Virus genome (UHGV): UHGV-0134932
Direction: 5' to 3' (one strand)
From: a virus
Length of the DNA stretch: 49,858 nt
The stretch's first letter is position 1. Every line of letters begins with the position of its first letter. Under the pieces are notes generated by a model. It was not told the DNA's origin and did no database searches. It saw nothing but the letters and a program-made list of their open reading frames with translations. Positions 2,786 to 49,858 of the stretch are shown piece after piece. A program made the position numbers and the translations under genes.

Positions 2786-2851
2786 AAATTTTGAGAGAAA
2801 AATCCCACTCCACCAGACAAAAACTGGATTGTTTTTCATAGTTGTTTGACA

Positions 2852-2868
2852 ATTGCTCTAATAAATTA
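2852..2868. promoter_or_regulatory. C1 operator (immC cluster)
   Basis: ATTGCTCTAATAAATTA, 16/17 match to consensus. Confidence 0.8.
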
Positions 2869-3106
2869 TAGTTTTGCCGCCGTTTCGTAATACGACTTTG
2901 GATTCACTATTTAATGTGTCTTCAGCGTTGTAGAGCGGCTCAGAAGGAAATGAGCAAACAGGGAAACCTTATACAACGGCATTACAGCTATGCATTGCTC
3001 ATCTTACACACAGCGCAATGTTGTTAGATTACCCCAGCATGGATCATGGGTGAAACAGTAGGTCAGAGCTTCAGGCTCTGTGTTGTCAATACAGTGAGGC
3101 ATAATT

Positions 3107-3316
3107 ATGGCTTTCATTCAACCAACCATCGACGACGTTAGACATTGCTCTAACGCTTTATCTGTAGACCCTGCCGAAACCGACGCTGCCCGCGCCATTG
3201 CTGAACACTACTCAAAGATATCCAATCAGGAGTACCGCATCACCCAAGACGACCTGGATGACCTCACTGACACAATCGAATATCTCATGGCAACTAACCA
3301 GTTAGACTCACAATAA
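3107..3316 (+). CDS. coi: Coi, C1 repressor inactivator
   Basis: 69-aa ORF immediately upstream of c1 on the same strand, the size and position expected for P1 coi. Confidence 0.8.
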   Translation: MAFIQPTIDDVRHCSNALSVDPAETDAARAIAEHYSKISNQEYRITQDDLDDLTDTIEYLMATNQLDSQ

Positions 3317-3332
3317 ATGCACTAATAAATCT
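3316..3332. promoter_or_regulatory. C1 operator-like site between coi and c1, next to a TATAAT -10 element
   Basis: aatgcactaataaatct, 14/17 match; TATAAT at about 3352. Confidence 0.5.
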
Positions 3333-3426
3333 ATTATTTTTGTTTGATCCCTCTATAATATAGGTCAGTAATGACCGGTTTTCTCAGCCGGGCGTTATTG
3401 ACCATGTCAATTCTGGAGGAGGATCA

Positions 3427-4278
3427 ATGATAAATTATGTCTACGGCGAACAACTGTACCAGGAGTTCGTCAGCTTCAGGGATCTCTTTCTAAAAAAAGC
3501 TGTTGCACGCGCCCAACACGTTGATACAGCCAGCGACGGTCGTCCTGTACGCCCGGTTGTCGTTCTACCGTTCAAAGAAACTGACAGCATTCAGGCTGAA
3601 ATTGATAAATGGACTTTAATGGCGCGGGAACTGGAACAGTACCCAGACCTCAATATCCCAAAGACTATTTTATATCCAGTGCCTAACATCCTTCGCGGTG
3701 TGCGCAAGGTTACAACTTATCAGACAGAAGCTGTGAACAGCGTCAACATGACCGCTGGCCGCATTATTCATCTGATTGATAAGGACATTCGCATCCAAAA
3801 AAGCGCGGGGATCAATGAGCACAGTGCGAAATACATAGAGAACCTGGAAGCAACAAAAGAGCTAATGAGGCAGTACCCGGAGGATGAAAAATTCCGTATG
3901 CGCGTACACGGCTTTAGCGAAACAATGCTGCGCGTCCACTACATTTCCAGTAGCCCTAACTACAATGATGGTAAATCAGTTAGTTACCATGTGCCACTGT
4001 GTGGCGTGTTTATCTGCGATGAAACTCTCCGTGATGGAATTATCATCAACGGTGAATTCGAAAAAGCAAAATTTAGCCTTTATGACTCCATAGAACCGAT
4101 CATCTGCGACCGCTGGCCACAAGCAAAAATATATCGCCTGGCAGATATTGAAAATGTAAAAAAACAAATTGCCATCACTCGCGAAGAGAAAAAGGTTAAG
4201 TCAGCCGCATCAGTTACGCGCAGCCGTAAAACCAAGAAGGGGCAGCCAGTAAACGACAACCCCGAAAGCGCACAATAA
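3427..4278 (+). CDS. c1: C1 repressor of lysogeny
   Basis: 283-aa protein (MINYVYGEQLYQEFVSFRDLFLKKAVARAQ...) matching the size and sequence I recall for P1 C1; preceded by coi and operator sites. Confidence 0.92.
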   Translation: MINYVYGEQLYQEFVSFRDLFLKKAVARAQHVDTASDGRPVRPVVVLPFKETDSIQAEIDKWTLMARELEQYPDLNIPKTILYPVPNILRGVRKVTTYQTEAVNSVNMTAGRIIHLIDKDIRIQKSAGINEHSAKYIENLEATKELMRQYPEDEKFRMRVHGFSETMLRVHYISSSPNYNDGKSVSYHVPLCGVFICDETLRDGIIINGEFEKAKFSLYDSIEPIICDRWPQAKIYRLADIENVKKQIAITREEKKVKSAASVTRSRKTKKGQPVNDNPESAQ

Positions 4279-4310: not shown

Positions 4311-5423
4311 TTATTCAGCCGCCACCGGTTTTAACAAGCCAGCATCGAGCAGTTTACGCGTCAACCACTGCTGGCCTTTCCCCGTTAATTGAGGCGTCAA
4401 CCGTATCTGGTAGCCATCTTCATCATCCAGCACCACTTCTTTCACCGTGAAATACCCCGCGTTGATGTACTGCTGGAACGGCACATTTTTACGGCCACCG
4501 GACGCTATCAGGATGCCGTTCTCCCGCAACCAGGCAAACAGCGCGTTTTGCTTAAGTCCAACAACCTTTGCAAAATTCCCAATCAGGATCCCTTTAGCTA
4601 CTGATACCCGGTCGGCAAAATCGACTTTAGGAGCGGCGGCCACCAGCTGCTGATTTAGCTGGTGGGCTTTCTGTTCCAGAAGCTGCTTTTGTTCAGCCAG
4701 TTCGGCAGCCAGGCGTAGGGCTTCTGGTAATGTTTGGGGGATTGCAACCGGTTGCTGTTCTTTTTGCCGGAAGTAGCTGTCTTCCAGTTTTTCAAAGAAT
4801 GCCCATGCTTCATTTGTGTCCACGATCTTAGACATGCGTGCAGCGCCGCGCTCTGTCCAGAGTGTAAGGCTTCTGGCGTTCTTACCAACAGAGTAACTTC
4901 CGGTTACTCTGTTCTTAAATTCTCTTAATTTTAAACCAGTTAGAAGAAAGTAATGCTTACCTTCTTCAAAGCGGTCAAGGTTGCGAGACAAATTGTTGCG
5001 AATATTGGCTTCATCGACCCCATACCCTCTAGCAAGAGTTTCGGTTGTCACGACACGTACTCCCTGCCACTCCAGAACGGGAATTTCATCAGGCTGATTT
5101 TGAGCAACCACCAGCTCCGATTCCTGAACTGAAGGTGCATGAATTTTTTCTGATTTAACGTTAGTTGCTTTCATTCTGTGAGCCTCCTTGCGTGCTTCGG
5201 CTGCGACGGTTGCGTAATTCAGATGACCCTGTTCGAGCAGGTATTCGCGGATATCAGACAACAGAATGCGGTGAACCGCGTTCTTGTCCTTTCTCCGGTA
5301 AAGTTGTTTGGTGATCATGAAGTAGTTGGCAATAACGCCTGGTATATCTCTGGTGCTGATACAGGCAGTGTGCTGTTCAATTGCCTCAATCATTTCTTCA
5401 CGGGTGACTAATGACGTTCTCAT
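4311..5423 (-). CDS. ant: Phage antirepressor with N-terminal Bro-N/ORF6N-like and C-terminal KilAC/Ant-like regions; an in-frame internal Met would give a shorter Ant2-like product
   Basis: 370 aa; size fits P1 Ant1 (about 42 kDa) and the internal Met near residue 84 fits an Ant2-sized product; start overlaps the stop of a 73-codon icd-like ORF. Confidence 0.7.
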   Translation of the reverse strand: MRTSLVTREEMIEAIEQHTACISTRDIPGVIANYFMITKQLYRRKDKNAVHRILLSDIREYLLEQGHLNYATVAAEARKEAHRMKATNVKSEKIHAPSVQESELVVAQNQPDEIPVLEWQGVRVVTTETLARGYGVDEANIRNNLSRNLDRFEEGKHYFLLTGLKLREFKNRVTGSYSVGKNARSLTLWTERGAARMSKIVDTNEAWAFFEKLEDSYFRQKEQQPVAIPQTLPEALRLAAELAEQKQLLEQKAHQLNQQLVAAAPKVDFADRVSVAKGILIGNFAKVVGLKQNALFAWLRENGILIASGGRKNVPFQQYINAGYFTVKEVVLDDEDGYQIRLTPQLTGKGQQWLTRKLLDAGLLKPVAAE

Positions 5424-6000: not shown

Positions 6001-7485
6001 TCATTCATTAAGCCATGCCAGAGCTTCATCAACCTGCGCTTCGTCTTCGACGCTAAGCACTTCATCCTGGGGAACATAGTTCGCCAACATAGCGAAACAA
6101 TATGTATCCCAATGGTCCGGTGAGTGCAGGTTGAGTTTTTTCTTCATATCTTCCTTTGACATCACTTTCCATTGACCTGCGGAATTTATCCCTACCGGTA
6201 TCTTTGATGCTTCCTCTATAGTCGCAGCCCCCTTATCAAGCCGCATACGCCCTGATTTTACAGCTTCTGCCGCCTGAATATTCGCGAAAGCGCGCATATC
6301 GAAATAAAGGCTTTTATCTTCACGGCTGTGCATCTTTTTACCCCAGCGGATACGCTGGACGGTAATACCATAGCGTTCGTACATCAGATCAGCCGTCGAT
6401 TTCCCCAAGCCATCGCCATCAATAGCTATGGTTATGTTCGGGAACCGTTCTGGGTTACATTCTGCGAAAATCTTGGCGGCTAACTGCGTTTCTGTAACGT
6501 CTGTGTATTCCAGCATACGATAGTTGATTACACGGCGTTTATTTCGCTGGCCGGACACCATCATGATATTAATAACGGACTTATCTCGTCCTGTGCCACC
6601 AGCAACATCAACACATGCAACCCAGCCCCATCCTTTGGCAATCTTGACCTTTCGCCGCGTTGCACGTTCAACCTCATCACGTCCAAGAAGGAAGCCATCC
6701 TGTGATTTAGGGAATAGGCCGCGTACCTTAATCATGTACATAGGGTTATCACGCCCGCCGTACTCCGCCAGCTTCATTTTGATAAATGCTGGCGTTACCA
6801 GCGGTGATTCCTCACTGTTAAGCGTGATCGCCGTATAAACGCCATCAGGGTTACCAGGACGCTTGGCCAGTTTATGGTGTGTATCGTAGAAATAGCCGCT
6901 TGGGCGTGTAGGCTGTGACAGTAATAAGATGCGGTTATCCTGTCCGGTAAGAGCACCGGTGATGATACCGAAAGCTCTATCACTGACACCGGAGGCTTCA
7001 TCGATAATATACAGAAGATGATCTGCGTGTTCACCGGCGAGAGCTTCTTCACTTCCCAGACGAAAGCCCTTCGGTACTACAGTCCATACACCTTTACCAG
7101 TAACCTCATAGAAAGCGGTTTCTGTCAGAACAAAATAATCAGCAAGCCATGGGAAACGGCTGGTGGCAGTAGCCCAGTTTATCTTGATGTACTTGAATAT
7201 ACCGGTCATTACCTGCTGAATTTTGTTCGCAACGATAATGGCGCGGGCACCGGGATACATGATTATGAACAACATGATCATGATAGAAGTCATGTCTGAT
7301 TTCCCGGTACCGTGACCAGACGAAACAGATGTCTTGCTACCCTGTTCCTGAACAGACTCAATAATCAGATCCTGCTGCCAGGTAGGTGTTTTGCCGAACA
7401 AAACATCAGCGGCCGCAATCCAGTCATAACGATATAGCGCCACCAGCTCGCGCCAACGTGGATCCGTTACGCAACTTCTGGCCAT
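6001..7485 (-). CDS. pacB: PacB, large terminase/pacase subunit
   Basis: 494-aa protein directly downstream of pacA; Walker A-like GHGTGKSD and an acidic DE-containing stretch typical of terminase ATPase/nuclease domains. Confidence 0.88.
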
Positions 7486-8678
7486 TAATCATCATCCCCG
7501 TACAGTTTGCGGGTAACTTCTTCATCTTCCTCCTCGTCTTCGTCCAGCTCCTGTTCAAGCCATGCTTCGTTTGATATGCCTTCCGCATCGACATCACCAT
7601 AACCACCTGTATCGACGATATCGGCAATTTCTTCTCTACGATGCTCAATCCACAATGCGGCATCAGCGCGGCGGCTGGCGGCCCGTTCTCGCGCAACTTT
7701 GTCCAGATCTTCAAGAGAAGGGCCACCGACGGCAGTTTGCCTTTCCTCATCATCGGCATTTGTCTTAGGAGCACGCAGATCGGCTTTGATTTGCTCCAGC
7801 ATCAGGGGCGGCACTTTCCCTCCATGCGCCTCGATGAATTCAGCCGCTTCCAGCACTGACCAGTTATTTTCACGCTTTCGTTCGTATGCCAGCTTAACAA
7901 TGCCAGCTTGCCCCATAGACAAAGCGTGCTTTTCCGCCTCCCGGCTTTCTTTTCGATAGTTATTCCGGATGCTGTAAATGGTGTTGATCAGGCTGCTTAT
8001 CTGCGCGGAACAGCTGTTTAGCATGCTCGCGATACGGTATTCAGGCGGAGTACCTTCATCATCGTCTTTTTGCTGATCGCGCATTTCCTGCACCAGGCGA
8101 ATACACGTATCCCGGGCGTTCTCCAGCATAAGGAGATGAGAAAGAGACTTTTCCAGAAGAGTGGTTTCCAGAACATCAGCTCCGGAACGACGCAACATAG
8201 CGCGCGCGGCCTTCCGCGCTTCAACGTTATCTATCAGGTAATCGCCAGCTTCGAATTCAAAGCGTTCACCATCATCATCCAGGGTGTCGCGTTCCAGGCG
8301 ATCACGTAAGGTCCGGTGGGCACGGGTGATCACGTCATGATCATCTGAACGATCATTTATGCGCTTATTTTGGCGCTTAGCGTTCTCGACTGCGGCACTG
8401 ACAACAGCATTAACTCTTTGTTTTTCCGCTATTTCAGCCGCAATGTGATCACCTGCATGTTGATCATTAGAGTGATCAATGATCATGCTTTTTAGTGGCT
8501 TCCTGACTGGCTTATTTGGCTTGCGGCTGTCCGCTGTCCTGGTGTCTTCTTTGAAGGCACGGAGATAACGACGTGCAGTATTAGGGTTAAGATTAAACTC
8601 GGCGGCATACTGTGCGATGGTGTAACCACCATCTCGCGCCAGGCGAGCAAAATTCTTCTTGTGATCGTCCCAGGTCAC
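7485..8678 (-). CDS. pacA: PacA, small pacase subunit; contains the pac site
   Basis: 397-aa protein with N-terminal DNA-binding-like region and an acidic C-terminus; the pac hexamer cluster lies inside its coding sequence. Confidence 0.88.
8327..8485. other. pac: pac packaging site: two clusters of TGATCA/G hexamers (Dam GATC sites) flanking the cleavage region
   Basis: Hexamers at 8327, 8338, 8351 (left) and 8446, 8461, 8473, 8480 (right), all containing GATC. Confidence 0.85.
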
Positions 8679-8763
8679 TTATGCTTCCTTTCGTAAAAAC
8701 TCTTTTTGACGCGAGGGTAACGAAAGTCACATGTCAAAAGGCCCGGAACGGGCAAGCAATCAA

Positions 8764-9216
8764 TCAGATACGTGCGGATGTGGCATTACCGTAATGACGG
8801 TGCTGACGGGCCACCTTATTGAAAAGTTGACGCGCCATTACCCAAGGCTGGTGCTCCCGGCGTTCCTTTTCGTCCTGCGTCATATAGAGTTCGTTCTGGA
8901 GTTTTTCATCAAACCGGCGCGGAGCGCGGCTACGGCGAAAGAATTCAGGATTCAGAGAGTGGATCTGAAATCTACGTGGGCGTGTACTGTCATCAATCAA
9001 AACAGACGAATACTTAGACACAGCGATAGCCTTTAAGCGCAGATAAACATCGCGCTTATCGACATCCAGATGCGGGTATTCCTTTTCAAGAATTGCTGCG
9101 AGTTCTTTCGCTGATAGAAGAGATTTAGTGCGGATCATGTAATCCGCAATCTCGTACGATGTTATTCGTGAGTGATTTATTTCCATGAAGTGGCGTCCCT
9201 GCCAGTTAAGTAACAT
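8764..9216 (-). CDS. lpa: Lpa-like late promoter activator (true start may be the internal Met at MEINHSR)
   Basis: About 150-aa basic protein immediately upstream of pacA with a C1 operator upstream, as for P1 lpa. Confidence 0.55.
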   Translation of the reverse strand: MLLNWQGRHFMEINHSRITSYEIADYMIRTKSLLSAKELAAILEKEYPHLDVDKRDVYLRLKAIAVSKYSSVLIDDSTRPRRFQIHSLNPEFFRRSRAPRRFDEKLQNELYMTQDEKERREHQPWVMARQLFNKVARQHRHYGNATSARI

Positions 9217-9280
9217 CCTGTCACCTACTGATTAGCCCATGTCAACTAATCAACGTGGAATATAATACCCTCGATTAAAG

Positions 9281-9303
9281 AAATAGCAATACATTAGAGC
9301 AAT
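9281..9303. promoter_or_regulatory. C1 operator-like bipartite site upstream of lpa
   Basis: aaatagcaat + acattagagcaat; 14/17 match for the main 17-mer. Confidence 0.55.
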
Positions 9304-9304
9304 T

Positions 9305-10348
9305 TTATCTAACGCTCGACGAGTGACTTGTGATAGCGCCGACTCCAAGCGCGTAATCAAAGAACAATCGTTGATGCATCGCCAGCCTACCGTGCGTCTT
9401 CTCCCAATTATCGCGGTCACGCTCAATATCACGCTGGCATGACTGGCACAGAGGAATTGCGTAAATGTCATGCGCGCATAATCGACTATGACGAACGATA
9501 TAAGGCGTAATGTGAGCGCCAGCTCCCGCCGCTCCACACCCACAGCATGGACGGGAAGCAACAAAGTCCATGTACTCAGGTAATTTTAGCGATTGCAGTT
9601 TTGGTATTTTGAAATGCGCCATGCCAGGGTCGGAGTCAACATCCACAGGGCATACTTTTGCACGCATCGGCGCGGCGCGTTCTTCCATCATCTGAACATA
9701 TGCTGTAGCGCGATCGTCATACGGGCGAATATCCGCCTCTTTCAGAGGTCCGCTATCCTGCGTTGCGGCTTTCATCTTATTTATTGATATACGGCAAACT
9801 TCTTCCGGCATCAGGTGCATCATGTTGCGCATGAAAGCCCACCAGCACAGTTCCTGAATACTTAAATCATGGCCATCTGAAAGCCCCATTTCCTGACGGG
9901 CGACATCCAGTATCCAGTTAACGCGATTATTATGCAGCGTTTCTTTCAGCTCATTAAAACCACGCATCCGGTAATGGTTATCGTGATGCCAGCACAACAA
10001 CACCGCGCTATTGTCTCGTTCAGCGTGGACAATATGGTTGTCACACCAACTACGATCTGCGGCCTGGCATTGCCCCTCTTTCCTGCGCAACCACGCCACC
10101 AGCGAGTCAATCCCACCAATACGGCGAAACAGTTCATCGCTGTTAAAAAACGGCTGCAACGCCTCATTTGTTGCCATAGTTTGCTCGGAAACAACGAGGC
10201 CGTCGTCCATGTGCTCGATTAACTCACGCGGCACCGGCTCCATAATAAATTTACGGCCAGCCTCCACCAGCTTTCTGACTTCCTGATCCACTTTGAATGT
10301 GGCGACGCCAAGCTCTTTTTGTACAAAGGGAGTAATTACGGCTTTCAC
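9305..10348 (-). CDS. Cys/His-rich protein (CWHHDNH, CCGCG, CQSCQ motifs), possible zinc-binding or HNH-like; occupies the P1 pdcB position
   Basis: 347-aa ORF between the doc-proximal small gene and lpa; Cys/His clusters seen in translation. Confidence 0.5.
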
Positions 10349-10375
10349 ATCACACCTTTCATCACTGATTGGGCT

Positions 10376-10555
10376 TTATCTGCTGCCCGGCATTCTCTGT
10401 TTAAGCACAACCATTTCCTGACGGCATAACACAGCAATAGCAGTCCTGACACCAACTTGCTTACCAACCAGGTATTGCTTTACCTCGCGGCGACTCACGC
10501 CATCAAGAAGCATCTTTAACGCTTCACGGGACAACTTGTTGTATTTACGTGCCAT
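10376..10555 (-). CDS. Small basic protein at the P1 pdcA position; start placed at internal Met to avoid overlap with doc
   Basis: ORF 10376-10576 overlaps the doc stop; internal Met (MARKYNKLSREALK...) gives a non-overlapping gene. Confidence 0.4.
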   Translation of the reverse strand: MARKYNKLSREALKMLLDGVSRREVKQYLVGKQVGVRTAIAVLCRQEMVVLKQRMPGSR

Positions 10556-10559
10556 TAAT

Positions 10560-44178: not shown

Positions 44179-45906
44179 TTGTGTTTAAGGAAGAGTAAAT
44201 TGAGTAACTTACGCGAATACCAGAATCGTATTGCAGATATCGCAAAACGCTCTAAAGCTGTGCTTGGCTGGGCAAGCACTGCGCAGTTCGGTACTGATAA
44301 CCAATTCATTAAAGATGATGCCGCGCGTGCCGCATCTATCCTTGAAGCTGCACGTAAAGACCCGGTTTTTGCGGGTATCTCTGATAATGCCACCGCTCAA
44401 ATCGCTACAGCGTGGGCAAGTGCACTGGCTGACTACGCCGCAGCACATAAATCTATGCCGCGTCCGGAAATTCTGGCCTCCTGCCACCAGACGCTGGAAA
44501 ACTGCCTGATTGAGTCCACCCGCAATAGCATGGATGCCACTAATAAAGCGATGCTGGAATCCGTCGCAGCAGAGATGATGAGCGTTTCTGACGGTGTTAT
44601 GCGTCTGCCTTTATTCCTCGCGATGATCCTGCCTGTTCAGTTGGGGGCAGCTACCGCTGATGCGTGTACCTTCATTCCGGTTACGCGTGACCAGTCCGAC
44701 ATCTATGAAGTCTTTAACGTGGCAGGTTCCTCTTTTGGTTCTTATGCTGCTGGTGATGTTCTGGACATGCAATCCGTCGGTGTGTACAGCCAGTTACGTC
44801 GCCGCTATGTGCTGGTGGCAAGCTCCGATGGCACTAGCAAAACCGCAACCTTCAAGATGGAAGCCTTCGAAGGCCAGAATGTACCAATCCGAAAAGGTCG
44901 CACTAACATCTACGTTAACCGTATTAAGTCTGTTGTTGATAACGGTTCCGGCAGCCTACTTCACTCGTTTACTAATGCTGCTGGTGAGCAAATCACTGTT
45001 ACCTGCTCTCTGAACTACAACATTGGTCAGATTGCCCTGTCGTTCTCCAAAGCGCCGGATAAAGGCACTGAGATCGCAATTGAGACGGAAATCAATATTG
45101 AAGCCGCTCCTGAGCTGATCCCGCTGATCAACCACGAAATGAAGAAATACACCCTGTTCCCAAGTCAGTTCGTTATCGCGGCTGAGCACACGGTACAGGC
45201 GGCGTATGAAGCACAGCGTGAATTTGGTCTGGACCTGGGTTCCCTACAGTTCCGCACCCTGAAGGAATACCTGTCTCATGAACAGGATATGCTGCGTCTT
45301 CGCATCATGATCTGGCGCACTCTTGCGACCGACACCTTTGACATCGCTCTGCCGGTTAACCAGTCCTTTGATGTATGGGCAACCATCATTCGTGGCAAAT
45401 TCCAGACTGTATATCGCGACATTATTGAGCGCGTTAAATCTTCTGGTGCGATGGGGATGTTTGCTGGTGCTGATGCAGCATCTTTCTTCAAACAGTTGCC
45501 GAAGGATTTCTTCCAGCCAGCCGAAGACTATATCCAGACTCCGTATGTTCACTACATCGGTACCCTGTTCGGTAACGTGAAAGTGTACGAAGTACCTGCT
45601 GGTATTTGTAAGAACTTAACGACAGAGAACATTCAGTTCAGCTCGATGGATGTGCTGTGCTACGTCCGTGATGAAAATCCGGGTAAAGCAGGCTTCGTGA
45701 CTGGTGATGCTGTCCCGGCTATCCCGTTCCAGCATCCGACCACTCCGGCGCTGGTCAACCGTACCACACTGTGGGGTTCGGCTATCAACGATATGCACCC
45801 ACGCAACGGCGCTGATTACTTCACTCGTGTAACGCTGACAATGGCCAAAAAAGGCGGGCTTAACTTTATAAGCGGCGACACGATTGATGCCGGTGACTCT
45901 GAGTAA
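44179..45906 (+). CDS. Putative major head protein precursor (P1 gene 23-like); likely TTG start at 44200 after AAGGAAGAG
   Basis: 575-aa ORF next to parS; assignment by position and size only. Confidence 0.45.
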   Translation: MCLRKSKLSNLREYQNRIADIAKRSKAVLGWASTAQFGTDNQFIKDDAARAASILEAARKDPVFAGISDNATAQIATAWASALADYAAAHKSMPRPEILASCHQTLENCLIESTRNSMDATNKAMLESVAAEMMSVSDGVMRLPLFLAMILPVQLGAATADACTFIPVTRDQSDIYEVFNVAGSSFGSYAAGDVLDMQSVGVYSQLRRRYVLVASSDGTSKTATFKMEAFEGQNVPIRKGRTNIYVNRIKSVVDNGSGSLLHSFTNAAGEQITVTCSLNYNIGQIALSFSKAPDKGTEIAIETEINIEAAPELIPLINHEMKKYTLFPSQFVIAAEHTVQAAYEAQREFGLDLGSLQFRTLKEYLSHEQDMLRLRIMIWRTLATDTFDIALPVNQSFDVWATIIRGKFQTVYRDIIERVKSSGAMGMFAGADAASFFKQLPKDFFQPAEDYIQTPYVHYIGTLFGNVKVYEVPAGICKNLTTENIQFSSMDVLCYVRDENPGKAGFVTGDAVPAIPFQHPTTPALVNRTTLWGSAINDMHPRNGADYFTRVTLTMAKKGGLNFISGDTIDAGDSE

Positions 45907-45966
45907 TCACGGGAAGTTATCCGTTTAACATAGCGCCCCCGTGCGGGGCGCATAACAGGGAAAGTT

Positions 45967-47556
45967 ATGTCTCAATATTCAATTCAACAGTCATTAGGTA
46001 ATGCATCCGGCGTCGCGGTTAGCCCGATCAATGCCGATGCGACGTTATCTACCGGTGTTGCATTAAATAGCAGCTTATGGGCTGGTATTGGCGTATTTGC
46101 GCGTGGCAAGCCGTTTACTGTTCTTGCGGTTACTGAGTCCAATTACGAAGATGTTCTCGGCGAACCGCTGAAGCCGTCTTCCGGCTCACAGTTCGAACCA
46201 ATTCGCCATGTGTACGAAGCTATTCAGCAAACGTCTGGTTATGTTGTCCGTGCTGTTCCGGATGATGCGAAGTTCCCGATTATTATGTTCGATGAATCAG
46301 GCGAACCGGCTTACAGTGCGTTGCCATACGGTTCTGAAATTGAACTTGATAGCGGCGAAGCCTTTGCTATCTACGTTGATGATGGTGATCCGTGTATTTC
46401 ACCTACCCGTGAGTTAACCATCGAAACGGCAACAGCGGACAGCGCGAGTAATGAACGCTTCATCTTAAAACTGACCCAGACGACTTCGCTTGGTGTGGTA
46501 ACGACCCTGGAGACACACACTGTGTCTTTGGCGGAAGAAGCGAAAGATGACATGGGCCGCTTGTGTTATCTGCCTACGGCTCTGGAAGCTCGTTCTAAAT
46601 ATCTGCGCGCGGTTGTTAATGAAGATCTGATTTCTACAGCGAAAGTAACAAACAAAAAATCGTTGGCGTTCACTGGTGGTACCAACGGTGATCAGTCGAA
46701 AATCTCAACCGCTGCGTACCTGCGTGCGGTGAAAGTGCTGAACAATGCGCCGTACATGTACACCGCTGTTCTTGGCCTGGGCTGCTATGACAATGCGGCT
46801 ATCACCGCATTAGGTAAAATCTGTGCAGATCGCCTGATTGATGGCTTCTTTGATGTCAAACCGACATTAAGGTACGCAGAAGCACTAACAGCTGTTGAGG
46901 GTACCGGTTTACTTGGTACCGATTATGTAAGCTGTTCTGTCTATCACTACCCGTTCTCCTGCAAAGACAAATGGACCCAATCCCGTGTGGTCTTTGGTCT
47001 GTCTGGCGTGGCGTATGCGGCGAAAGCTCATGGCGTCAAGAAAAACTCTGATGTCGGCGGTTGGCATTACTCACCGGCTGGTGAAGAACGTGCCGTCATT
47101 GCTCGTGCGTCAATTCAACCGCTGTATCCGGAAGATACCCCGGACGAAGAAGCAATGGTCAAGGGCCGTCTCAATAAAGTATCTGTTGGCACCTCTGGCC
47201 AGATGATCATCGACGATGCTTTAACTTGCTGCACGCAGGATAACTATCTGCACTTCCAGCACGTCCCATCCCTGATGAATGCAATCAGCCGTTTCTTTGT
47301 CCAGTTAGCCCGACAGATGAAGCATAGCCCGGACGGTATTACTGCGGCTGGCCTGACTAAAGGGATGACCAAACTTTTAGATCGCTTTGTCGCCTCCGGC
47401 GCTCTGGTGGCTCCTCGTGATCCCGATGCTGACGGTACAGAACCGTATGTGCTGAAAGTTACGCAGGCGGAATTCGATAAATGGGAAGTAGTCTGGGCCT
47501 GCTGCCCGACTGGCGTAGCCCGTCGTATCCAGGGCGTACCGCTGCTTATTAAGTAA
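45967..47556 (+). CDS. Putative contractile tail sheath protein (P1 gene 22-like)
   Basis: 529 aa; size and position; weak pattern resemblance to myovirus sheath proteins. Confidence 0.45.
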   Translation: MSQYSIQQSLGNASGVAVSPINADATLSTGVALNSSLWAGIGVFARGKPFTVLAVTESNYEDVLGEPLKPSSGSQFEPIRHVYEAIQQTSGYVVRAVPDDAKFPIIMFDESGEPAYSALPYGSEIELDSGEAFAIYVDDGDPCISPTRELTIETATADSASNERFILKLTQTTSLGVVTTLETHTVSLAEEAKDDMGRLCYLPTALEARSKYLRAVVNEDLISTAKVTNKKSLAFTGGTNGDQSKISTAAYLRAVKVLNNAPYMYTAVLGLGCYDNAAITALGKICADRLIDGFFDVKPTLRYAEALTAVEGTGLLGTDYVSCSVYHYPFSCKDKWTQSRVVFGLSGVAYAAKAHGVKKNSDVGGWHYSPAGEERAVIARASIQPLYPEDTPDEEAMVKGRLNKVSVGTSGQMIIDDALTCCTQDNYLHFQHVPSLMNAISRFFVQLARQMKHSPDGITAAGLTKGMTKLLDRFVASGALVAPRDPDADGTEPYVLKVTQAEFDKWEVVWACCPTGVARRIQGVPLLIK

Positions 47557-47565
47557 GGGAATACA

Positions 47566-48381
47566 ATGAGCAAAAACTTTTTTCAATCCGGGGCATTTTT
47601 GGGGAATGGACTGTCCCGTTTCGCTTTGAACTCTGATCCTGTGCAGCTGATGGAGTCTGCCCGAGCAAGCGCCGAACCGCCAACAGATCCGGTTATTAAT
47701 AATAATCCGGAACCGGCGGCACAGACTAACGATAATGTTCCATCTGATCCGGCTCCTGAGCAAATCCTGGAAGGGAAAGATGGTAAAGAATGGACCGTCG
47801 AACAGGCGCACCAGATGATTCTGGAAGCTGCAAATCGAAGTGCTATGCAGAATGCGTTGAGTGATGCGGCCGACGCCGTTTTCTCCTGGGCTGATAGCGG
47901 TGATCTGACTTTCGACTCCCTTGATGGTTTCGTTCAGGCTATCGCTGGTATCTCTGATGACGACGACTCCGAAGTTACAGAAGAACAGGACGATGCCTAT
48001 AACGAAGCATGGGCAAATGTTGCTGACTTCCTCGCAGCATGCGGTGTAGATGATGACCTGATCGAAGCACTGGCTGACGATGAAGACGACGACGCTGCTG
48101 CTGATGTTGGTGCCTCTATCGCTGGTTTAGATAGCGACGACCGCGACGAACTGGAAGCGGCGTTTGTTGTTGCTGGCACTTCTGATGAAATGCTGACTGA
48201 AGCATTTAAGAAGGTTGTTCGTAACGGTGAGATCAAACTCATCCGTAAACGCCTGCGTAAAAAACGTCTGACTGCGGCTCAAAAATCGGCGCTGAAAAAA
48301 GCGCGTCGAAAAGCCCAGACCGGCGCGGCAAAACTTGCCCGCAAAAAGTCAATGAAACTGCGCCGTAAGCGCCTTGGCTAA
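47566..48381 (+). CDS. Acidic protein with highly basic C-terminal tail
   Basis: 271-aa ORF; D/E-rich body, C-terminal KKARRKAQTGAAKLARKKSMKLRRKRLG. Confidence 0.5.
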   Translation: MSKNFFQSGAFLGNGLSRFALNSDPVQLMESARASAEPPTDPVINNNPEPAAQTNDNVPSDPAPEQILEGKDGKEWTVEQAHQMILEAANRSAMQNALSDAADAVFSWADSGDLTFDSLDGFVQAIAGISDDDDSEVTEEQDDAYNEAWANVADFLAACGVDDDLIEALADDEDDDAAADVGASIAGLDSDDRDELEAAFVVAGTSDEMLTEAFKKVVRNGEIKLIRKRLRKKRLTAAQKSALKKARRKAQTGAAKLARKKSMKLRRKRLG

Positions 48382-48416
48382 AGGAGGAGGCCGGAGAACT
48401 CCGGCCTTTAACTTGA

Positions 48417-48998
48417 ATGGCACCTATACCTTATGGGGTTTACAGCCAGGCTGACGGTGTATCGCCATTTCTGAAAGTTACTTTAACGAACTCTCAGTAC
48501 CAGGTTACCGGATATATCAGCCAGGGGGCAGCAATGAACATGGCCCAGAATTGGGAAGCGCCGTTTACCGGTATGTCCATGGGGTCTGTTGCTGGTGCTT
48601 TCAGTGGTTTTGCGCAGGTTGGTACTGAAACAACGTCGGTGGCCCGTTGGAACAGCTTAATGGTTTGGGAGGGGGGAACACCGCCGACTTTCACGCTGCC
48701 AGTAACTTTCATCGCTTTGTTTGACCCATTCACGGAGGTTTCAGGAGCTATCGCCGCATTGTCAGCGATGATTAGCCCGGAACTTAAAGATGCCAGCATT
48801 GGTGGTCGAATCCCGGAGCGTGTGACGCTAAACATTGGTCGCCGGATCAACATCATTGATGTCGCTATCCAGGACATAAGTTTCGATCTCGATGCGCCCA
48901 GGGACAGCAATGGGCATTTCCTGAAAAACACCGTCAACCTCCAGTTGACCGGTTCTTCGATATATAACAGCTCCGATATTGTTCGGGCGTTCCAGTAA
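48417..48998 (+). CDS. Putative tail tube protein (P1 gene 21-like)
   Basis: 193 aa; size and position next to the sheath candidate. Confidence 0.4.
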   Translation: MAPIPYGVYSQADGVSPFLKVTLTNSQYQVTGYISQGAAMNMAQNWEAPFTGMSMGSVAGAFSGFAQVGTETTSVARWNSLMVWEGGTPPTFTLPVTFIALFDPFTEVSGAIAALSAMISPELKDASIGGRIPERVTLNIGRRINIIDVAIQDISFDLDAPRDSNGHFLKNTVNLQLTGSSIYNSSDIVRAFQ

Positions 48999-49009
48999 AA
49001 GGATCTTAT

Positions 49010-49519
49010 ATGGGGCACAATAACACTAAGGGAAACCGTAAATTTATTAAGGGCCGCTATACTGCCAACGCGGCCAAAGGCGAACGACTGGTATCTTCTG
49101 AATTCCAGCTCACTTTTGCAGGCTATGAAGATATCAGTGTACTTGTTCGTACGTCGCAAATCCCTGAAATGACTCGCGAGGATGTGGAGGACTATGGTCC
49201 GAATGGTGTGAAGTTCAACCAGCACGGTCCAATTCGAAACTCTGGGGAAATCCAGGTTCAGTGCGTGGAGACTATCGAAGGCGATATTCTTCAGTTCATT
49301 AAGGATCGCATTGCGGCGAAGGACTATGTTGATATCACGATGGCTGCTACCCCTGAATCCAAATCTTCCGGGGTTAACGCTGTGACAAAAGCTGCTACAA
49401 CAATTGAAATGTTGGACTGCAAAATCTACAGTGATGCAATCGACTTTAGTACCGAAGATGTGACTGCCGCTGTGCGCCCGTCACTTCGTATCGTCTACAA
49501 CTGGATTGAGTGGGATTAA
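49010..49519 (+). CDS. Hypothetical structural-block protein
   Basis: 169-aa ORF followed by a strong terminator. Confidence 0.5.
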   Translation: MGHNNTKGNRKFIKGRYTANAAKGERLVSSEFQLTFAGYEDISVLVRTSQIPEMTREDVEDYGPNGVKFNQHGPIRNSGEIQVQCVETIEGDILQFIKDRIAAKDYVDITMAATPESKSSGVNAVTKAATTIEMLDCKIYSDAIDFSTEDVTAAVRPSLRIVYNWIEWD

Positions 49520-49538
49520 GAGTCATCCCTTGTATTTT

Positions 49539-49564
49539 AAAGCTCCTTCGGGAGCTTTTTTATT
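49539..49564 (+). terminator. Rho-independent terminator
   Basis: aaagctccttcgggagcttt hairpin followed by tttttatttgg. Confidence 0.6.
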
Positions 49565-49623
49565 TGGAGAGGAAAGGGTGCATTGAGGATACCTGACACA
49601 CGAAGAGTGGCGGGGATCTCTCC

Positions 49624-49858
49624 CATAAGCGCTAACTTAAGGGTTGTGGTATTACGCCTGATATGATTTAACGTGCCGATGAATTACTCTCACGATAACT
49701 GGTCAGCAATTCTGGCCCATATTGGTAAGCCCGAAGAACTGGATACTTCGGCACGTAATGCCGGGGCTCTAACCCGCCGCCGCGAAATTCGTGATGCTGC
49801 AACTCTGCTACGTCTGGGGCTGGCTTACGGCCCCGGGGGGATGTCATTACGTGAAGTC
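49624..49858 (+). mobile_element. Left end of an IS186-like (IS4 family) insertion sequence, truncated by the window edge
   Basis: Terminal repeat-like cataagcgctaacttaagggttg about 55 bp upstream of a transposase start; preceded by GC-rich ggcggggatctccc. Confidence 0.7.
49679..49858 (+). CDS. IS186-type transposase, N-terminal 60 codons (partial)
   Basis: MNYSHDNWSAILAHIGKPEELDTSARNAGALTRRREIRDAATLLRLGLAYGPGGMSLREV. Confidence 0.7.
   Translation, partial: MNYSHDNWSAILAHIGKPEELDTSARNAGALTRRREIRDAATLLRLGLAYGPGGMSLREV

Follow-up and report, generated by a model that had tools for sequence, protein, structure and literature searches.

An IS186 copy in the post-hok hairpin of a P1-like phage-plasmid: a widespread insertion between hok and its fold-back inhibition element

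The virus genome UHGV-0134932, analysed here as a single window of 49,858 nucleotides, is a P1-like (IncY-type) phage-plasmid, the right edge of which is an ordinary, already described copy of the insertion sequence IS186. With very little doubt, this element sits in the motif GGGG(ATCTCT)CCCC, 22 nt past the stop of a convergent hok gene, where it splits hok from the fbi (fold-back inhibition) element borne by the 3' end of the hok mRNA. As the window ends 18% into IS186, the complete copy, the right-hand duplication of the target and the hok gene beyond are inferred from related plasmids. The insertion is widespread and was already published for a P1-like plasmid, namely pSvP1 (Venturini et al., 2019; PMC6906374).

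The IS186 copy at the right edge of the window

The 23-bp left terminal inverted repeat of IS186, CATAAGCGCTAACTTAAGGGTTG, is found exactly at positions 49624-49646 on the plus strand, where it is identical to the ends of IS186A and IS186B from E. coli K-12. This is its sole occurrence in the window at up to three mismatches, with none expected by chance from shuffled sequences. From this repeat to the end of the window (49624-49858, plus strand), 235 of 235 bp are identical to K-12 IS186A and IS186B by blastn (100%), which corresponds to the first 18% or so of an element of 1339 bp. The ORF of the transposase (InsL) starts with an ATG at 49679 and comprises exactly 60 codons up to the window end (49679-49858, plus strand), i.e. 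the first 60 of 370 residues; it begins with MNYSHDNWSAILAHIGKPEEL and is translated as MNYSHDNWSAILAHIGKPEELDTSARNAGALTRRREIRDAATLLRLGLAYGPGGMSLREV. The original prediction had proposed, from the letters alone, an IS186-type terminal repeat, the first 60 codons of the transposase and the membership of the IS4 family, all of which stand. It had rightly seen an insertion but had made it begin at 49560; the first 64 bp so delimited are flanking DNA foreign to the element, and IS186 itself starts at 49624.

Taken alone, the fragment of 60 residues matches no Pfam or NCBIfam profile, and the family assignment is based on the DNA identity together with the full-length protein encoded by the relatives, in which the transposase of 370 aa is recognised by Pfam DDE_Tnp_1 (E = 1.6e-26) and, with 133 bits vs. 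a cutoff of 115, by NCBIfam transpos_IS4_1. Regarding nomenclature, the matching copies are labelled 'IS4-like element IS421 family transposase' in RefSeq, PGAP attributes IS186 to the 'IS421 family' and the K-12 records for the same protein read 'IS186/IS421 family transposase'. The designation 'IS421 family' is a family name only, and the element is IS186, of the IS4 family. Copies with the sequence of 49624-49858 are present in 2202 of the 5426 complete E. coli genomes. Another ORF of 370 aa in the window, on the minus strand at 4311-5423, was considered as an IS186 transposase and rejected, as it shows no blastn similarity and the equal length is a coincidence.

Neither the other end of IS186 nor any further piece of it was detected in the window by repeat scan and blastn. 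The possibility that the window wraps round a circular contig was rejected on this same ground, that is, the lack of a second IS186 end in the window. The right terminal repeat, which lies outside the window, is present in relatives carrying the identical junction, and the rest of the element follows at full length in every copy inspected. In plasmid pLKSZ04 (L002), for instance, the complete IS186 of 1339 bp is identical at every position to K-12 IS186A and IS186B. Among the plasmids with the junction, the one most similar over 20 kb is p6CP1-IncY-mcr-3.5, which exhibits the order bplB, complete IS186, hok, upf (a small ORF), repL and kilA; in PLSDB, the best 20-kb match is 99.1% identical over 97%. 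Past position 49858, the DNA would then be expected to continue with 1104 further bases of IS186 ending with ...CAACCCTTAAGTTAGCGCTTATG, followed by GGATCTCTCCCCGCCAGG and by hok on the minus strand. The region to the right of the window edge differs between plasmids, as repL and kilA come after hok in p6CP1 and phi456, and IS fragments (IS30, IS3, IS1203 and IS1) are found past hok instead at 7239-10559 in pLKSZ04 (L002). As for the second part of the window (30000-49858), the best PLSDB matches reach 98.7-99.1% identity, cover 97-99% and are split into 2-3 pieces; none of them is exact, and the plasmid backbone over this interval looks mosaic.

The target site and its duplication

As established from mutation-accumulation lines, IS186 targets 5'-GGGG(N6/N7)CCCC-3' (Lee et al., 2016; PMC5009759); only 54 such sites exist in the K-12 genome, some of which were struck repeatedly, and the element inserts in either orientation. 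In the window, GGGG is found at 49612-49615, the N6 core ATCTCT at 49616-49621 and the left copy of the duplication, GGATCTCTCC, at 49614-49623, the flank of the element thus reading GGGG ATCTCT CC|C. By its flanking letters, IS186 is inserted at its published preferred motif. This is the GC-rich, target-like flank that had been noticed at the outset, where it was written as ggcggggatctccc; the actual sequence is ggcggggatctctccc, two bases having been dropped.

Comparison of occupied and empty sites indicates that the interval 49609-49623 is the left half of a palindrome, GGCGGGGA-TCTC-TCCCCGCC. In pLKSZ04 (L002), the element is flanked as ...GGCGGGGATCTCTCC|IS|GGATCTCTCCCCGCCAGG..., and a target-site duplication of 10 bp, GGATCTCTCC, is present both in this plasmid and in p276M-CTX-M-55 (L005); in other words, the duplicated target anticipated at the other end of the element is found in the relatives. 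As the last C/G of the IS could equally belong to the target, the duplication may be as long as 12 bp. In the empty sites of phage phi456 and of plasmids p12579_1 and pEC12-3, the target is in single copy within the palindrome GGCG(A/G)GGA-TCTC-TCCCCGCC.

Besides the occupied target, there is no GGGG-N6-CCCC site in the window. The sole GGGG-N7-CCCC site is at 31880-31894 (GGGGCAAGGTTCCCC); it is unoccupied, lies 60 bp from a tRNA gene (31956-32031) and is a potential second target for IS186. Three tRNA genes, all on the minus strand, are called in this part of the window, namely Met(CAT) at 31956-32031, Thr(TGT) at 33472-33547 and Asn(GTT) at 33550-33625.

The hok/sok neighbour and its severed 3' tail

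In every relative, the right end of IS186 is located 22 nt downstream of the stop of a gene of 51 codons on the opposite strand. This 51-aa ORF, which lies beyond the window, matches Pfam PF01848 HOK_GEF (E = 1.3e-21), and its product is 80% identical to K-12 HokC. In the relative L001, the Rfam model sok/hok-leader RF01794 matches upstream of this gene, at 3787-3961 on the minus strand, with 114.3 bits (gathering score, 59). A promoter-like site with an extended -10 is found just upstream of the predicted 5' end of the hok mRNA, GGGUGCUUGAGG. In the IS-bearing plasmids, the hok ORF is undecayed, WP_001352007.1 being annotated at both occupied and empty sites.

On the other side of IS186, the window retains the orphaned fbi element of the hok mRNA, CCUCAAUGCACCC, at 49576-49588 on the minus strand, which is complementary to the 5' end GGGUGCUUGAGG and lies in a region identical to that of the uninterrupted relative phi456. 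In the predicted fold of the intact phi456 transcript (396 nt; MFE of -155.1 kcal/mol, z = -7.5), nucleotides 1-12 are joined to CCUCAAUGCACCC, close to the 3' end, in the MFE as well as the centroid structure, and the target palindrome forms a stem-loop of 9 bp just past the hok ORF. When the interrupted transcript is folded in silico, the fold-back is no longer predicted and the 5' end pairs locally; nor does IS186 contain, within two mismatches, an fbi-like complement that could replace the lost element. The 64 bp that precede IS186, after the terminator, are the severed 3' tail of the hok mRNA rather than a spacer.

The tac/fbi pairing keeps the full-length hok mRNA inert until its 3' processing (PMC9841398). 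Beyond the identity of the element, its exact site, its duplication, its two orientations and its position with regard to hok and fbi, all of which are directly readable in the DNA, the following course of events is envisaged. A hok/sok type I toxin-antitoxin module, convergent on bplB, has replaced the rlfA-rlfB-pmgF segment of P1, and IS186, by means of its DDE transposase, has transposed into the palindrome that follows the hok stop by 22 nt, generating the duplication of GGATCTCTCC. This palindrome is dual, being a target motif for IS186 as DNA and a post-ORF stem-loop as RNA. The hok promoter, the Sok target and the ORF have ended up to the right of IS186, beyond the window, and the 3' fbi (49576-49588) to its left. 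As IS186 is interposed between the hok ORF and fbi, the hok transcript, which would now read into the element, could not form the inert tac/fbi fold-back. By modelling and by analogy, the pool of stable hok mRNA on which post-segregational killing depends is probably lost, as proposed for K-12 hokC/gef. This inactivation of hok may yet be incomplete, since in K-12 the transcription of gef continues, as does its control by the antisense RNA (PMC3562002).

Recurrence of the insertion or inheritance from a single event

The 559-bp junction between bplB and IS186 (49300-49858) is carried by plasmids of 175 of the 5426 complete E. coli genomes, isolated from poultry, pigs, humans, water and wildlife in several countries, which does not accord with the original suggestion of a laboratory- or strain-specific marker. 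In PLSDB, the junction is matched with a coverage of 80% or more by 176 plasmids, with Salmonella, Shigella, E. albertii and E. fergusonii among the matches listed. A search with a constructed junction, as expected for the opposite orientation, further retrieved 32 complete genomes at 100% identity. One of these reverse junctions, in p276M-CTX-M-55 (L005; NZ_CP044294.1), corresponds to an IS186 at 2825-4163 that occupies the very same base and is flanked by the same duplication of 10 bp. The empty bplB-hok site, searched for with a probe, is present in 201 genomes; with 175 + 32 occupied sites against these 201 empty ones, roughly half of the plasmids with the bplB-hok arrangement bear IS186 there, in counts that are not phylogenetically independent. 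Regarding E. coli as a whole, short probes for the IS186-hok junction are covered at more than 80% in about 820-845 of the 5426 genomes, for the most part with 80-95% identity. Chromosomal hok paralogues with IS186 at the equivalent position are among these matches, and the arrangement is very common in the species.

Such figures could also arise from a single ancestral insertion, which would then be a mere marker of one P1-like plasmid lineage without any hot-spot. All 40 junction matches listed are indeed 100% identical over the 559 bp, and the duplication has the same length in all the copies inspected, though the title of Sengstag et al. (1986) speaks of variable-length duplications given by IS186 at one target. 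This account is judged rather unlikely, although it deserves more credit than the others considered here, given the 32 genomes with a reverse IS186 at the same base, the independent presence of IS186 at the homologous positions of hokC and hokE, where the flanks differ and the IS is identical, and the rarity of the GGGG-N6-CCCC motif, which was repeatedly struck in mutation-accumulation lines (PMC5009759). The existence of two orientations means that the site was hit at least twice, albeit they could in principle result from an inversion between the 23-bp terminal repeats rather than from two insertions. Once established, most copies were then probably inherited with the plasmid lineage.

Polymorphism of the target and possible selection

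Position 49613 of the window, that is the second G of GGGG, corresponds to a G/A polymorphism, which is also seen at 3614 of L001 as well as in L006 and L007. The three empty sites inspected (phi456, p12579_1 and pEC12-3) read GAGG and the occupied sites GGGG; the GAGG variant breaks the DNA motif but retains the RNA stem as a G.U pair. The two forms of the site, the canonical GGGGATCTCTCCCC and the single-base-changed GAGGATCTCTCCCC, were compared for their occupancy. The exact canonical GGGG site is found empty in about 41 records, and the idea that it would always be occupied was thus rejected. An empty site of any variant is found in 322 genomes (125-bp probe, at least 80% coverage). In the forward orientation, no occupied counterpart of the GAGG variant was found (best identity of 99.3%), against about 280 remaining empty sites, in three of which the variant base was read. 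Canonical targets come to about 207 occupied against about 41 empty, i.e. an occupancy of about 83% in counts that are not phylogenetically independent. This GGGG/GAGG pattern fits the target specificity of IS186 and may reflect target escape or lineage linkage.

Rather than expressing a neutral target preference, the insertion might have been selected because it disarms hok. The occupancy of about half of the bplB-hok plasmids and of most canonical targets would be in keeping with such an adaptive inactivation, as would the recurrence of hok loci near the insertion hotspots of mobile genetic elements, several of which are adjoined by hok/sok homologues (bioRxiv 10.1101/527788). Selection is nonetheless considered an unlikely driver, as target specificity alone predicts recurrent insertions (PMC5009759), the genome counts lack phylogenetic independence and the hok ORF is undecayed. 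At a comparable, low level of belief, the post-hok hairpin could be speculated to be a built-in landing pad for IS186, by which the hok of P1-like plasmids would be recurrently, perhaps adaptively, disarmed and from which a single G-to-A change (GAGG) would protect.

The bplB gene, its terminator and the variable module

The insertion of IS186 at its preferred motif between hok and fbi has also to be considered with regard to the structural genes on its left. The last gene of the structural block, bplB (P1 'baseplate'/tail-tube gene), is an uninterrupted ORF of 169 aa at 49010-49519 on the plus strand, the DNA of which is 97-99.5% identical to bplB/tail tube protein of P1, P7, RCS47, SJ46 and phi456. 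After its stop at 49519, a consensus scan detected an intrinsic-terminator-like hairpin, AAAGCTCC-TTCG-GGAGCTTT, followed by the T-run of TTTTATTT (49539-49566, plus strand), which would constitute the end of the bplB transcription unit. The hairpin proper spans 49539-49558, IS186 starts 65 bp beyond it and 57 bp separate the end of the T-run (49566) from the first base of the element (49624). The original prediction had correctly positioned the insertion just after the terminator of the structural block but had also envisaged a truncation of, or a polar effect on, downstream genes. Since the insertion is intergenic and located after the terminator, it neither truncates nor polarises any structural gene, and the next gene is the convergent hok.

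The similarity of P1, P7, RCS47 and SJ46 to the window stops around 49561, and the phi456-type relatives continue up to 49624; position 49561 or thereabouts is thus the edge of a variable module as well. In the description of pSvP1, the absence of rlfA, rlfB and pmgF is put down to the IS (PMC6906374), in other words IS186 would itself have removed these P1 genes beside bplB, and the fact that similarity to P1 and P7 ends just short of the element would go along with this. Such a loss caused by the IS is most improbable, as phi456 and the 201 E. coli genomes with the empty site have the same bplB-hok junction free of IS, and an intact direct repeat of the uninterrupted target flanks IS186, which denotes a simple insertion without adjacent deletion. 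These IS-free relatives, together with the intact duplication, argue that the swap of rlfA/rlfB/pmgF for hok is independent of IS186 and predates it. Less credible still is the idea that IS186 is here reduced to a truncated piece, or that the junction was created by misassembly or chimera formation at a repeat. Only 18% of the element is visible, no right end lies in the window and contigs often break in IS copies; the identical junction nevertheless recurs in 175 finished, circular assemblies, and all those inspected go on into a full-length IS186 flanked by a matching duplication.

Comparison with known systems

While the discovery value is small, this being a textbook IS at a textbook target, the analysis is of use for annotation, where the last 235 bp of the window are to be described as IS186, the preceding 64 bp as the severed 3' tail of hok and the tail operon as intact. 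Besides, the population counts place the hok hairpin among the sites on E. coli plasmids where IS186 is most often inserted, and bear on whether insertion sequences routinely neutralise the addiction modules of phage-plasmids.

The nearest known system is pSvP1, a P1-like plasmid in which IS186B makes the same insertion with the same 10-bp direct repeat (Venturini et al., 2019; PMC6906374). Two points differ from the present reading: the deletion of rlfA/rlfB/pmgF by the IS, a published inference that is corrected here as it is contradicted by the empty-site relatives, and the neighbouring ORF, which is designated as an 'antibacterial toxin' in a text where the word hok is absent.

On the chromosome of K-12, the counterpart of the plasmid arrangement is hokC(gef)::IS186A. 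There, the right end of a 100% identical IS is measured at 22 nt past the hok stop, as at the plasmid hok. As in the plasmid, IS186A splits the homologous GGCGGGGA-NNNN-TCCCCGCC hairpin, in the same orientation with its transposase convergent with hok, and strands fbi to the left of IS186A, on the dnaJ side. Unlike the plasmid locus, hokC is a chromosomal paralogue, with a Hok 80% identical and a core reading ATCACT instead of ATCTCT. At this locus, fbi is presumed to be disrupted by the IS186 that follows gef/hokC (PMC3562002), and insertion elements have inactivated hok loci of K-12 (PMC7232551, citing Pedersen and Gerdes, 1999). In hokE::IS186B, a GGGG-N6-CCCC site (GGGGAGTAATCCCC) immediately after the hok stop is again occupied, but with the element in the opposite orientation with respect to hok and in a more diverged locus. 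Beyond the hok family, the hot-spots of the lon promoter, fimA and menC (PMC5009759; title of SaiSree et al., 2001) share with the plasmid site the GGGG(N6/N7)CCCC motif, the insertion in either orientation and the repeated independent insertions. At these hot-spots a promoter or a coding region is disrupted, whereas on the plasmid IS186 strikes a 3' UTR, within an element of RNA structure.
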